Source: Candidatus Woesearchaeota archaeon
GTDB taxonomy: Archaea; Nanobdellota; Nanobdellia; SCGC-AAA011-G17; JACPIM01
Direction: 5' to 3'
NCBI GenBank assembly: GCA_964513145.1
Contig: CAZELK010000007.1
Span: 11,960-50,803 of the forward strand
DNA: 38,844 nt
A program made the translations under genes and the position numbers. The notes beneath the pieces were generated by a model that was not told where the DNA came from, did not search any database, and saw only the letters and a program-made list of their open reading frames with translations. Shown piece after piece: positions 11,962 through 26,945 of the stretch (positions are counted from its first letter, which is position 1; each line of letters opens with the position of its first letter).

Positions 11962-11999
11962 GAAAGATTTAAAATTCTATTTCTGATTGAATTATTTAT

Positions 12000-12073
12000 G
12001 GGCTCGTAGTAGAACTGGTTAATACGCTCCCATGGCATGGGAGAAACTTCGGATTCAAATTCCGACGAGTCCA
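12000..12073 (+). tRNA. tRNA-Ala(GGC), intronless
   Basis: Acceptor GGGCTCG/CGAGTCC with G3:U70, anticodon stem CTCCC/GGGAG, loop ATGGCAT. Confidence 0.93.
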
Positions 12074-12340
12074 TTATAATCAAAGAAAAAAGCTTTACCA
12101 AAAAAAATTAAATAAAGAAAATGGAGTGCGCCCCTAAAATGAGACAAATAGATAAGTATATTTGATACTCAAAATTAGGAGATGTACATGATATTATCAA
12201 GAAGAAAATATTTATGTTAAATGATATTCCAGAAATAAGTTATAAAGAAGATTTTTAGCAATTAATCCAATTATCTTAAATGAGATTTAAATAAAATTAA
12301 GGTACTAAAAACTTATAAATATTAAAATCATATTAAACTT

Positions 12341-17780: not shown

Positions 17781-18356
17781 CGTTTAAATTCTAAACAGCC
17801 AACCATAAATTTTATATTTAATGAATCTGAAAAAGTTAGATGGCTTGCTATAAAAACTTATTTTGACTTTGATGGATGTATATACCCTTCATTTAAATTA
17901 AAAAGAAAAATTGACCGAAAGAAAGATAAGTTTTATTTATATTACCAGGTACAATTTGGGTGTGAAATTAAAATCGCTGAAACTAATCCAAATTTAAATG
18001 ATGAATTAATTATATTATTTAAGACTCTTGGTCTAAATGCAAAGAAGAAGTTCCGAAAAAGAAATTGGAGTGGATTAGAGGGTGTTGGATTTTCTGATCG
18101 AAAAAGCGTATTAAAATTTATAGAATTTGGAAAGCCCATAACTGATATAAAAATTTCTTCTAAAAGTAAACGTTTTGAAAGTTTAAAGAAAATTTATTTA
18201 TTTAGTGCTGTTGAAAAAATTTTGCTTTATAACTTACTTCCAACTTCGTGCACATTTAAAAATTATAAAGACGCCTTAGATTGCAAAACTTATTTAAATA
18301 GAGAATTAGAAAAATTAGTGAGAGATAGCCCTGATAACAGCCCCGTGGAAGTTTAA
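17781..18356 (+). pseudogene. 5'-truncated LAGLIDADG endonuclease (C-terminal domain, no start codon)
   Basis: Open frame from after TGA 17778-17780 to TAA 18354-18356: ...TINFIFNESEKVRWLAIKTYFDFDGCIY...; absent from the ORF track because it has no start codon. Confidence 0.72.
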
Positions 18357-18444
18357 TCTGCGGAATGTAGCGGCCAAGCACATAGCCCTTTGGTCTTTTA
18401 TAGGGAGCAAGGCTTTGACCCAAGTTCGAATCTTGGCGGGGCTA
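18339..18444 (+). tRNA. tRNA-Gln(UUG) with two introns (10/11, 37/38)
   Basis: Acceptor AGCCCCG/CGGGGCT; introns 18349-18365 (CCGT/GCGG) and 18394-18409 (CTTT/GGAG). Confidence 0.9.
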
Positions 18445-18493: not shown

Positions 18494-18596
18494 AGTCCTG
18501 TCGTTCAGCGGTCAAAGATATAAAATCGACTTTGGACACTCGGCTCTGGAAATTGGAGACCCCGAGAGATCGGAGGTTCGAATCCTCCCAGGACTA
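18494..18596 (+). tRNA. tRNA-Gln(CUG) with two introns (21/22, 37/38)
   Basis: Acceptor AGTCCTG/CAGGACT; introns 18516-18533 (GGTC/GACT) and 18550-18560 (CTCT/GGAG, 11 nt). Confidence 0.9.
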
Positions 18597-21792: not shown

Positions 21793-22359
21793 TTAAGGTC
21801 GCATCCAACGACATTCATAATAAGTAACATCGCCTTCTGCATCAACTATTGCAAGCATCAATCTCTTTCTTGTAGAATGTGCAACTCTATTTTTTGCTGA
21901 GAATTCATACCAAGTTAGTATTTCTCCTTCATTTGCCGGGTAAACTATCCATTTTGCATGGTCATCTCCTGGCTTAATACCACGATCATAAACCCTGAAA
22001 TCAGCACCAAATTTTAATGCTGTTTTTACTATATACCCCCTTGATCTTAAATCCCTAAAAACACAATACCTTATCCAAAACTTTGGCTCTATCTGTCTTG
22101 CTTTTCTTAAAAACTGATCATATGTAACAGGTTTCTTTTTTCCGTCAAAAACATCCAATTTTTTCTTTTCTAACAAGTATAGTGCTTCAACTAAAGAATA
22201 TGAAACTTTGCTTTCTTTTAATTCCCCTACTCTACTTTGCTCATATAATTCTTTACTTAATGGGTCTTCAGAATAAACGCTTTCGCGGGCGAAAATTGCC
22301 TTAATTTTTTCTTCTGGTTTTATTTCCTTTACTTCTTTTGTATCTGTTTTAGTTGCCAT
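21793..22359 (-). CDS. endA: tRNA-intron endonuclease, catalytic alpha-type subunit
   Basis: SLVEALYL, KFGADFRVY (Tyr), DDHAKW (His), RVAHSTRK (Lys), GDVTYY. Confidence 0.95.
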   Translation of the reverse strand: MATKTDTKEVKEIKPEEKIKAIFARESVYSEDPLSKELYEQSRVGELKESKVSYSLVEALYLLEKKKLDVFDGKKKPVTYDQFLRKARQIEPKFWIRYCVFRDLRSRGYIVKTALKFGADFRVYDRGIKPGDDHAKWIVYPANEGEILTWYEFSAKNRVAHSTRKRLMLAIVDAEGDVTYYECRWMRP

Positions 22360-22412
22360 TGTATTATCTTGAAAACGAAAAGTTATTTAAAAAGCTTTTC
22401 TATTGTATATTT

Positions 22413-23303
22413 ATGAAAATAACTTTTTTAGGTACTGGTTCTATGATGCCTACTGCAACTAGAAATCATAGCTCTATTCTGTTTAATTATAAGGAAGAAA
22501 ATATATTGATTGACTGCGGGGAAGGGACACAAAAGCAATTCAGAATTGCAGGATTAAATCCCTTAAAAATAACCAAGATTTTGATTACTCACTGGCATGG
22601 AGACCATATACTTGGCTTACCAGGATTATTGCAAAATTTATATAAAAATGGCTACAATAAGGTTTTAGAAATTTATGGCCCTAAAGGAAGCAAGAAATTT
22701 TTTGAAAATATGTTTAAATGGTTTTATGTTGATTTAAGATTAAATTTTAAAGTCAAGGAAATTAACGAGGGAATATTTTTTGAAAACCAAGATTTTGTTT
22801 TAAAATGCACTAAACTAAATCATGGGATACCTTGCCTGGGGTATTCTTTTATTGAAAAAGAAAGAAGAAAAATTGACATTAATTATCTAAAAAAATTTAA
22901 TTTAAAAAATCATCCGATAATAAAAGAATTACAAAAAGGAAAAGACATTACCTGGGAAGGCAAAAAAATCAAAAATAAACTGGCTACAAAAATTGTCAAA
23001 GGCAAAAAGGTTAGTTTTATTTTAGATACTGGATTTACCAAGAACATTATTAATTTGGTAAAGGACTCGGATGTTTTAGTGTGTGAATCAACACATTCTG
23101 ATGAACTAGTTGAGAAAGCCAAAGAATACGGACACTTAACAACAAAACAAGCAGCGAAAATAGCAAAGGATTCCAAAGTAAAAGAATTGATATTAACTCA
23201 TTTTAGCCAAAGGTATAAAGAAACTGATGACTTATTAAAACAAGCTAAAAGCGTTTTTAAAAATACTAAAGCAGCCAATGATTTTGACTGGTTTGAAATT
23301 TAA
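22413..23303 (+). CDS. rnz: Ribonuclease Z
   Basis: MKITFLGTG start at 22413, THWHGDH, exosite, LTHFSQRY. Confidence 0.96.
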   Translation: MKITFLGTGSMMPTATRNHSSILFNYKEENILIDCGEGTQKQFRIAGLNPLKITKILITHWHGDHILGLPGLLQNLYKNGYNKVLEIYGPKGSKKFFENMFKWFYVDLRLNFKVKEINEGIFFENQDFVLKCTKLNHGIPCLGYSFIEKERRKIDINYLKKFNLKNHPIIKELQKGKDITWEGKKIKNKLATKIVKGKKVSFILDTGFTKNIINLVKDSDVLVCESTHSDELVEKAKEYGHLTTKQAAKIAKDSKVKELILTHFSQRYKETDDLLKQAKSVFKNTKAANDFDWFEI

Positions 23304-26781: not shown

Positions 26782-26945
26782 GCGGGGATGCCGGAGCGGT
26801 CAAATGTAATGCTTTATTACAGACTTAACGGGCTAGAGATTACCCTAGTAATCGGCTATGCTAAGGGATCAGCCATGCTTAGGCTATCTGATAGAAGAAA
26901 CCTAGTGGCTCAGTGCCTACGGAGGTTCGAACCCTCTTCCCCGCA
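26782..26945 (+). tRNA. tRNA-Leu(UAG) with introns at 21/22, 30/31 (tandem pair or one 40-nt intron) and 37/38
   Basis: Acceptor GCGGGGA/TCCCCGC, long variable arm; introns 26804-26827, 26837-26859 plus 26860-26876, and 26884-26899; anticodon TAG 26880-26882. Confidence 0.88.

Follow-up and report, generated by a model that had tools for sequence, protein, structure and literature searches.

Does the 40-nt insert that separates nt 30 from nt 31 in a tRNA-Leu(UAG) gene represent two introns stacked at one site, or one intron with a repeat inside it? The question is raised by a gene in the window, i.e., the whole 38,844-nt stretch of Candidatus Woesearchaeota DNA analyzed here, which belongs to a genome (G000) of 0.98 Mb with 28% GC and 98.8% completeness. 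An earlier note on this DNA had read the insert as an intron placed at the splice junction of another intron. We dissected the gene into the following parts.

26782-26945, + strand: tRNA-Leu(UAG) gene of 164 nt (84 nt once spliced; CCA not encoded), from hand parse, Rfam and ARAGORN.
26782-26803, + strand: first exon, from hand parse and script check.
26804-26827, + strand: D-loop intron of 24 nt, a strict bulge-helix-bulge (BHB) motif in the BHB enumerator (central helix GGUC/GACU, 7-bp h').
26828-26836, + strand: exon nt 21-30, with GGCU (nt 25-28) as the 5' strand that both units use for the central helix; A29, G30 and the first intron base form the 5' bulge.
26837-26859, + strand: unit A, 23 nt, the ancestral 30/31 intron, with a bulge base, a 6-bp hairpin, the helix strand GGCU and AU before the cut.
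26860-26876, + strand: unit B, 17 nt, composed of X and Y, an in-register repeat of the junction.
26860-26866, + strand: X, 7 nt that repeat nt 31-37 of the anticodon loop with AAG in place of UAG, 6/7 identical to 26877-26883.
26867-26876, + strand: Y, the second 3' half-motif, with AUC, the helix strand AGCC and AU before the cut; 4/4 Watson-Crick with exon GGCU.
26877-26883, + strand: Z, a 7-nt micro-exon (nt 31-37) with the working anticodon UAG, from hand parse and script check.
26884-26899, + strand: canonical 37/38 intron, 16 nt, helix strand GAAG with A opposite U34; pairing is 3/4 for the UAG loop, 2/4 for the AAG copy.
26900-26945, + strand: 3' exon (nt 38-73), comprising the class II variable arm, T arm, acceptor strand and discriminator.

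Removal of the three inserts in silico gave an 84-nt product with a normal cloverleaf, which ARAGORN called tRNA-Leu(tag). The insert at 26837-26876 thus lies between nt 30 and 31 of tRNA-Leu(UAG), as the earlier note had placed it, and the elements named there were all present (the exon GGCU; the 6-bp hairpin, GGCU and AU|G of unit A; AGCC and AU|G of unit B). What that note had missed is the AAG anticodon-loop copy at the start of unit B. When X was joined to the flanking exons in silico, the product was called tRNA-Leu(aag) by ARAGORN. In unspliced form the gene at 26782-26945 was missed by ARAGORN, and with the Rfam tRNA model it scored 23.7 bits, under the gathering score of 29 bits; two inserts (27 and 65 nt) stayed unaligned.

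A BHB consists of a 4-bp central helix with two 3-nt bulges on opposite strands, and the cut falls after the second base of the bulge. The geometry used here agrees with PMC5829648. An exhaustive BHB enumerator applied to the insert returned a 23-nt and a 40-nt solution, each with a 4/4 central helix. In the 40-nt solution, exon GGCU pairs with AGCC near the end of the insert and h' measures 4 bp; this is the whole-insert excision motif (GGCU/AGCC core with a GAU/AUC helix) that had been proposed for one-step removal. In the 23-nt solution, the exon strand takes as its partner the GGCU at the end of unit A, and h' measures 6 bp. Since GGCU can pair with itself through two G·U pairs, unit A is a complete BHB in its own right, a point left implicit in the earlier note. 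The exon-exon helix h is only 1 bp in the BHBs of the insert, which corresponds to an HBh'-type motif. With unit A gone, unit B alone keeps the central helix and has no h' of its own. The proposed division into two units with one 5' cut and separate 3' half-motifs was confirmed, both RGCY strands varying in a pair-preserving manner among the genes termed type 1 below. The bulges and central helix of a BHB tRNA intron were found both in the 40-nt solution and in unit A alone, and splicing restored the cloverleaf. A nested (twintron-like) intron was not recognized, since the units abut and share the 5' cut and the outer 40-nt motif forms without prior removal of an inner one.

Comparison with related genomes revealed the same two-part insert in G001, G002 and G003 of the same genus and in G008, a member of another genus of the family. 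Farther members of the order (G004, G056, G032) carry single 30/31 introns that resemble unit A by eye, a different single 30/31 intron is present in G027, G010, G006 and G013, and no intron was found at the 30/31 site of G009. The anticodon stem of G006 has other bases, and these are matched by a changed intron strand (GGUC/GACU), a covariation that supports the 30/31 helix as a real splicing element. The Leu(CAA) and Leu(UAA) genes of G000 likewise bear 30/31 introns with perfect helices. Given the single unit-A-like introns at the same site across the order, unit A is an old 30/31 intron of the Leu tRNA genes in this Woesearchaeota-type order; the arms of its hairpin covary through compensatory changes across the type 1 variants. 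Unit B, by the same comparison, was added; it occurs in the genus of the window, in G008 and in related metagenomic lineages.

The makeup of unit B points to its source. X differs from the micro-exon solely at position 34, and unit B ends in the same succession of AUC, RGCY and two bases as unit A. Alignment of the last 10 nt of A plus the first 7 nt of B with the last 10 nt of B plus the micro-exon gave 71-94% identity across variants; in one variant the two 17-mers differ at position 34 only. A short-word BLAST of the genome for further copies of unit A, unit B, the D-loop intron and the canonical intron returned self matches only, so the similar copies elsewhere in the genome that would mark a transposed or mobile tRNA intron were not seen. 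Unit B is thus a 17-nt in-register repeat of the intron/exon junction and, by our reading, no intron from elsewhere. Because the repeat spans the end of intron A and exon nt 31-37, it would have brought with it both the second 3' half-motif and the AAG copy of the loop. Unit B may have arisen either by a tandem duplication of 17 nt with a later change from U to A, or by recombination between AAG and UAG paralogues; such paralogues share the 30/31 intron, which is, e.g., near-identical in both genes of G032.

How far does this repeat account for the insert, compared with an independent intron or mere chance? The earlier note had taken unit B for an independent intron that landed recently at the splice junction of A and is removed separately. 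This model could call on the two complete 3' motifs on one 5' cut, on closely spaced archaeal tRNA introns with ordered removal, which are known (PMC8450103), and on alleles with A alone, and of the single-unit relatives it predicted, those with a unit-A-like intron alone at 30/31 were indeed recovered (G004, G056, G032 and others). Unit B alone, however, was never found, has no other copy in the genome, would be left without an h' helix of its own after removal of A, and repeats the adjacent junction (last 10 nt of A) together with the anticodon loop of the exon (nt 31-37). Nor is the layout the recent snapshot of intron accumulation it was taken for: it is old and stable, being present in all four genomes of the genus, in a second genus and altogether in 14 variants from genomes and metagenomes. 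We consider an independent origin of unit B quite improbable. Still less can be said for a plain single 40-nt intron whose inner second motif and loop-like 7-mer arose by chance. It is true that a 6/7 loop match occurred in 3.9% of shuffles of the insert, and that BHB pairs with a common 5' cut also arise by chance in other genes of G000 at a lax threshold (h' of at least 3), for which reason double BHBs of this kind were discarded as a rare signal. Yet interior-shuffled inserts produced an internal 4/4 helix strand with an h' of at least 6 bp, as in the complete internal BHB, in just 0.18% of cases (at least 4 bp in 1.4%). As BHB pairs occur by chance at lax settings, the real weight of the double motif lies in its conservation: both 3' motifs were retained in every insert-bearing orthologue, and the 14 distinct type 1 variants kept both motif and loop copy with compensatory changes, which makes a chance origin hardly credible. 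The reading that we hold to be reasonably probable is that of one composite BHB intron at position 30/31 of a working tRNA-Leu(UAG) gene, in which A is the old intron, B a repeat of its junction, and distal pairing leads to removal of all 40 nt in one step.

To follow the two-loop layout beyond the genus, a search pattern that demanded both loops was run on 240 genomes of the order and on metagenomes. It retrieved 8 tRNA genes from the 240 genomes and 76 metagenomic contigs, many of which were simple repeats. Pooling of the genome loci and metagenomes left 32 distinct real two-loop genes, namely 14 of type 1 (including the window) and 18 of type 2 (including G152 and G158). Many type 1 organisms were represented in groundwater and sediment samples. 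The invariance of the loops in the metagenome set follows from the pattern, which required both loops to be intact. Searches made without the requirement for a spare loop yielded no decayed spare-loop copies and returned known genomes only (5 and 2, a small sample). In our reading, type 1 comprises UAG genes with an AAG copy in the 30/31 intron, in which both the 30/31 and the 37/38 helices would favor UAG, and type 2 comprises AAG genes with a UAG copy in the 37/38 intron of the same two-loop layout.

This reading draws on the pairing of two short helices. In type 1 genes, the A strand (AGCU, GGCU or AGCC) and the B strand (GGCU, GGCC or AGCC) all pair 4/4 with exon GGCU, and the 37/38 helix strand is GAAG or UAAG. 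In type 2 genes, the distal (B) strand always has a central mismatch against exon GGCU. The base of the canonical intron opposite position 34 is A in 14/14 type 1 genes, complementing U34 of the UAG loop, and U in 17/18 type 2 genes, complementing A34 of the AAG copy; a split this strict looks like specialization to one product. Constrained folding of short fragments taken by themselves, apart from the tRNA body and protein, gave nearly isoenergetic proximal and distal pairings for type 1 (ddG -4.5 to +3.1 kcal/mol) and favored the proximal pairing by 1.5-7 kcal/mol for type 2. When the anticodon stem was closed through X, i.e., on the AAG loop, type 1 genes formed no in-register helix; type 2 genes formed a near-textbook in-register BHB with a 4-bp helix and a 3-nt AA|A bulge, the pairing of Y with the canonical intron serving as h'. 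A few bases in two short helices thus seem to decide which anticodon each lineage obtains from the same two-loop gene. The gene of the window is better described as a real and conserved two-anticodon-loop gene that is locked to UAG in this lineage. The evidence for the two-loop gene is wholly computational.

Some individual loci deserve mention. L081, a type 2 gene on a metagenome contig, has a canonical-intron strand that is type-1-like and pairs 4/4 with the UAG loop; it may represent a hybrid state or an intermediate between the two routings. We discarded G144 as an independent type 1 lineage of another family, given that the acceptor stem of its native Leu genes is a different one and that CAA, AAG and UAG each have a gene of their own there. 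The contig that carries the type 1 gene assigned to it (L034 / L158, G144:C77) is 3.4 kb long and probably mis-binned. At the D-loop site, the intron of the window is absent in G001-G003 and G008, and unrelated inserts of 22-44 nt were seen in various type 1 and type 2 variants (compared: L002-L005, L034, L126, L147, L149, L036, L112, L115). With the closest relatives empty and other variants carrying unrelated inserts, the sequences suggest repeated gain or turnover at this one site of tRNA-Leu.

From the anatomy, its conservation and the repeat, all of which are observed directly, we infer which cuts are actually made in the gene of the window and in what order. In the folding ensemble of G000, exon GGCU paired with the distal strand with a probability of 0.68 and with the proximal strand with a probability of 0.05, and the constrained energies were -13.3 and -11.3 kcal/mol, respectively. 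In the distal conformer of G000, the AAG copy and the first bases of Y pair with the 5' half of unit A, so that a long hairpin results; in most type 1 variants, the whole-insert conformer pairs X with the middle of unit A. In the proposed route, the splicing endonuclease would cut the shared 5' bulge after G30. With exon GGCU paired to distal AGCC, the second cut would fall after unit B, and the whole 40 nt, including the AAG copy, would leave in one step. RtcB ligase would then join G30 to G31 of the UAG loop. Alternatively, pairing with the proximal GGCU would free unit A alone, and B would then need a second, weaker cut. After A-only removal, B is a loop-type substrate whose required fold lies 4-6 kcal/mol above the free minimum. 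Since B lacks an h' at that stage and its fold is costly by this amount, the model favors one-step removal of the 40 nt in the gene of the window. A route of this kind alone is, on the other hand, at odds with the compensatory changes by which type 1 genes keep the complete BHB of unit A, which one-step removal does not need. As the two 3' choices are nearly isoenergetic across type 1, A-only cutting probably occurs as well, and the conservation of the unit A motif in type 1 lineages suggests tolerance of such cuts, whether they belong to a two-step route or lead into an AAG product.

The enzymes for such a route are encoded in G000, with a sole splicing endonuclease gene located in the window:

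21793-22359, - strand: EndA, 188 aa, with matches to PF01974 and PF02778.

A second EndA subunit was not found in G000 even at E <= 10. The closest solved chains of EndA are 1a79 and 3iey_A, i.e., the M. jannaschii alpha4 enzyme and the N. equitans alpha subunit. Alpha4-type EndAs with an extra L3 loop have been reported in several DPANN lineages with disrupted tRNA genes (PMC5829648), and the single EndA of G000 fits these enzymes by analogy: in both cases, EndA is short and encoded by one gene, and the tRNA genes are heavily disrupted, the likeness being drawn here from size and context. EndA stands head to head, with an overlap of a few bases, with a metallo-beta-lactamase gene (22353-23303, + strand) that shows a weak tRNase Z domain match; two tRNA-processing genes would thereby adjoin in a genome rich in non-canonical introns. 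An RtcB ligase is also encoded in G000 (G000:C6:75368-78150). Its Pfam profile was matched in two pieces about 1.4 kb apart, the larger one in an 879-aa open frame, and a TAG stop was recorded inside the match of the smaller piece. The gap could be an intein, another insertion or a split gene.

Standard finders gave no usable tRNA census of G000, with 15 genes found by ARAGORN (introns allowed), 24 by the Rfam tRNA model and 18 by a T-arm/acceptor-anchored scan; the inventory was therefore restricted to Leu genes. As just 15-24 genes were found in a 98.8% complete genome, many of its tRNA genes must be split or carry interruptions in their acceptor or T arms. The tRNA-Leu(UAA) gene (G000:C6 ~53370-53640) has, by eye, apparently four interruptions (D loop, 30/31, 37/38 and T loop). 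Elsewhere in the window, two neighboring tRNA-like Rfam matches (~18356-18444 and 18494-18596, + strand), one of them sub-threshold, are both longer than a plain tRNA, and an uninterrupted tRNA-Ala(GGC) occupies 11999-12074 (+ strand).

The AAG copy raises the further question of whether the gene supplies a second isoacceptor. Although A34 tRNA genes have been called very rare (PMC11066159), the Leu gene inventory revealed stand-alone tRNA-Leu(AAG) genes at the following loci:

Same family as the window genome: L063 (G012) and L067 (G009).
Other genomes: L075 (G032), L077 (G041), L027 (G040), L032/L033 (G123/G124), L166 (G144), L030 (G039) and L026 (G059).

Most of these genes have a 30/31 intron, and those tested fold as tRNA-Leu(aag) after in-silico splicing. 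A separate UAG gene accompanies the AAG gene in G012, G009, G032, G041, G040 and G123, and in G144 as well. In this Woesearchaeota-type order, A34 tRNA-Leu(AAG) genes are hence common and, as a rule, coexist with a separate UAG gene. In the window's genus, the Leu genes detectable in each of the four genomes number only three: the two-loop gene, CAA and UAA. G158 (100% complete; sample L183-L191) has a single AAG-favoring type 2 gene for the whole CUN box. A TadA-like deaminase was not found: G000, G012 and G041 have no deaminase-fold gene, and those of G009, G032 and G158 are ComEB/dCMP-deaminase-like.

Could the gene of the window make both tRNA-Leu(UAG) and tRNA-Leu(AAG) by choice of the 3' motif at 30/31? 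On the AAG route, a cut after A would link the body to the AAG loop, and one long 37/38 intron made up of Y, the UAG loop and the canonical intron would then leave. Several observations are consistent with two products. The gene contains the two loops, and either product folds as tRNA-Leu, the one of the AAG route being a good tRNA-Leu by ARAGORN. The Leu gene inventory found no separate AAG gene in the four genomes of the genus, whose sister genera have one, and CUU is the most used CUN codon; in G158, where the CUN box has a lone two-loop gene, CUU and CUA are both in use (CUA at 8.6 per 1000 codons). The BHB of unit A, kept through compensatory changes, and the near-equal energies of the two 3' choices would also suit a dual product. 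Against this, the helix that type 1 would need at the AAG loop has no more than 2/4 or 3/4 pairs and an A·A mismatch at position 34, no in-register helix forms, and the base opposite position 34 separates the types as if each were specialized to one product; the motifs favor one product per lineage. G004 and G006, moreover, apparently have UAG without AAG, so that UAG-only decoding seems viable in the family. Pairing of Y with the canonical intron (5-6 bp) was seen in 12/14 type 1 variants, with a double change in G000, but shuffles reached the observed Y:I3 helix length in ~19% of cases on average for type 1, which is not significant (32% for type 2), and the pairing was dropped as proof of a type 1 AAG route. 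On balance, we regard a dual product of the window gene as unlikely. We are equally doubtful of the general form of the idea, in which one gene with two tandem anticodon loops yields two Leu isoacceptors by alternative BHB splicing, their ratio being set by lineage-specific tuning of the two 4-bp helices. If true, it would amount to cis alternative splicing of a tRNA, with anticodons changed or shared without gene duplication. The composite intron with UAG as its product remains our preferred reading.

Several BHB introns per tRNA gene, their ordered removal and a body shared in trans are already known. For the tri-split tRNA-Gly of Caldivirga maquilingensis, Fujishima et al. are said to have described in 2009 how one body is joined to alternative anticodon pieces via BHB-type junctions, both isoacceptors being made. 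The gene of the window is alike in that one body can be combined with alternative anticodon-bearing pieces through such junctions. It is unlike in that the Caldivirga pieces are separate transcripts joined in trans, with both tRNAs reportedly made in one organism, whereas here all pieces lie in cis within one 164-nt gene, so that no trans-joining of the tri-split type was found, and the motifs suggest mainly one loop per lineage. One tRNA body with two anticodons in trans is likewise given for tri-split tRNAs in PMC4090602, which cites that work. Genes with several introns, neighbors among which need ordered removal, occur in Thermoproteales and Thaumarchaeota and were described for tRNAscan-SE 2.0 (PMC8450103). 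They share with our case protein-spliced BHB introns at non-canonical sites, several per gene, but here two 3' motifs act on a single 5' cut at one site, and the second unit is a junction repeat with an anticodon loop copy that can leave with the first in one cut. As tRNA genes with as many as five intervening sequences have been described in archaea (Asgard), the four splicing units counted in this tRNA by the earlier note are not a record. Intron transposition among Thermoproteales tRNA genes (Fujishima et al. 2010, as summarized in PMC4090602) also accounts for how archaeal tRNA genes gain introns; there, near-identical introns occupy other sites or genes, whereas A and B have no second copy in the genome. 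In a literature search, neither two-loop tRNA genes nor a tRNA-Leu(AAG) in DPANN proved to have been described. The same search found no account of two 3' motifs on a single 5' cut, an intron with an anticodon loop copy, one layout resolved to different anticodons by lineage, or frequent A34 Leu tRNAs in an archaeal order.

For annotation, the locus is a caution: standard tools miss the gene, and a motif-driven intron caller could pick either loop, with the result that a wrong anticodon would be reported. The tRNA introns of archaea tend to be regarded as passive inserts. Tracing part of an intron to a repeat of its own splice junction offers a concrete route of intron growth that works without a mobile element. 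The two-loop gene, in turn, suggests a way for a tRNA to switch isoacceptors, and possibly to serve as both, without passing through a dead-gene stage.
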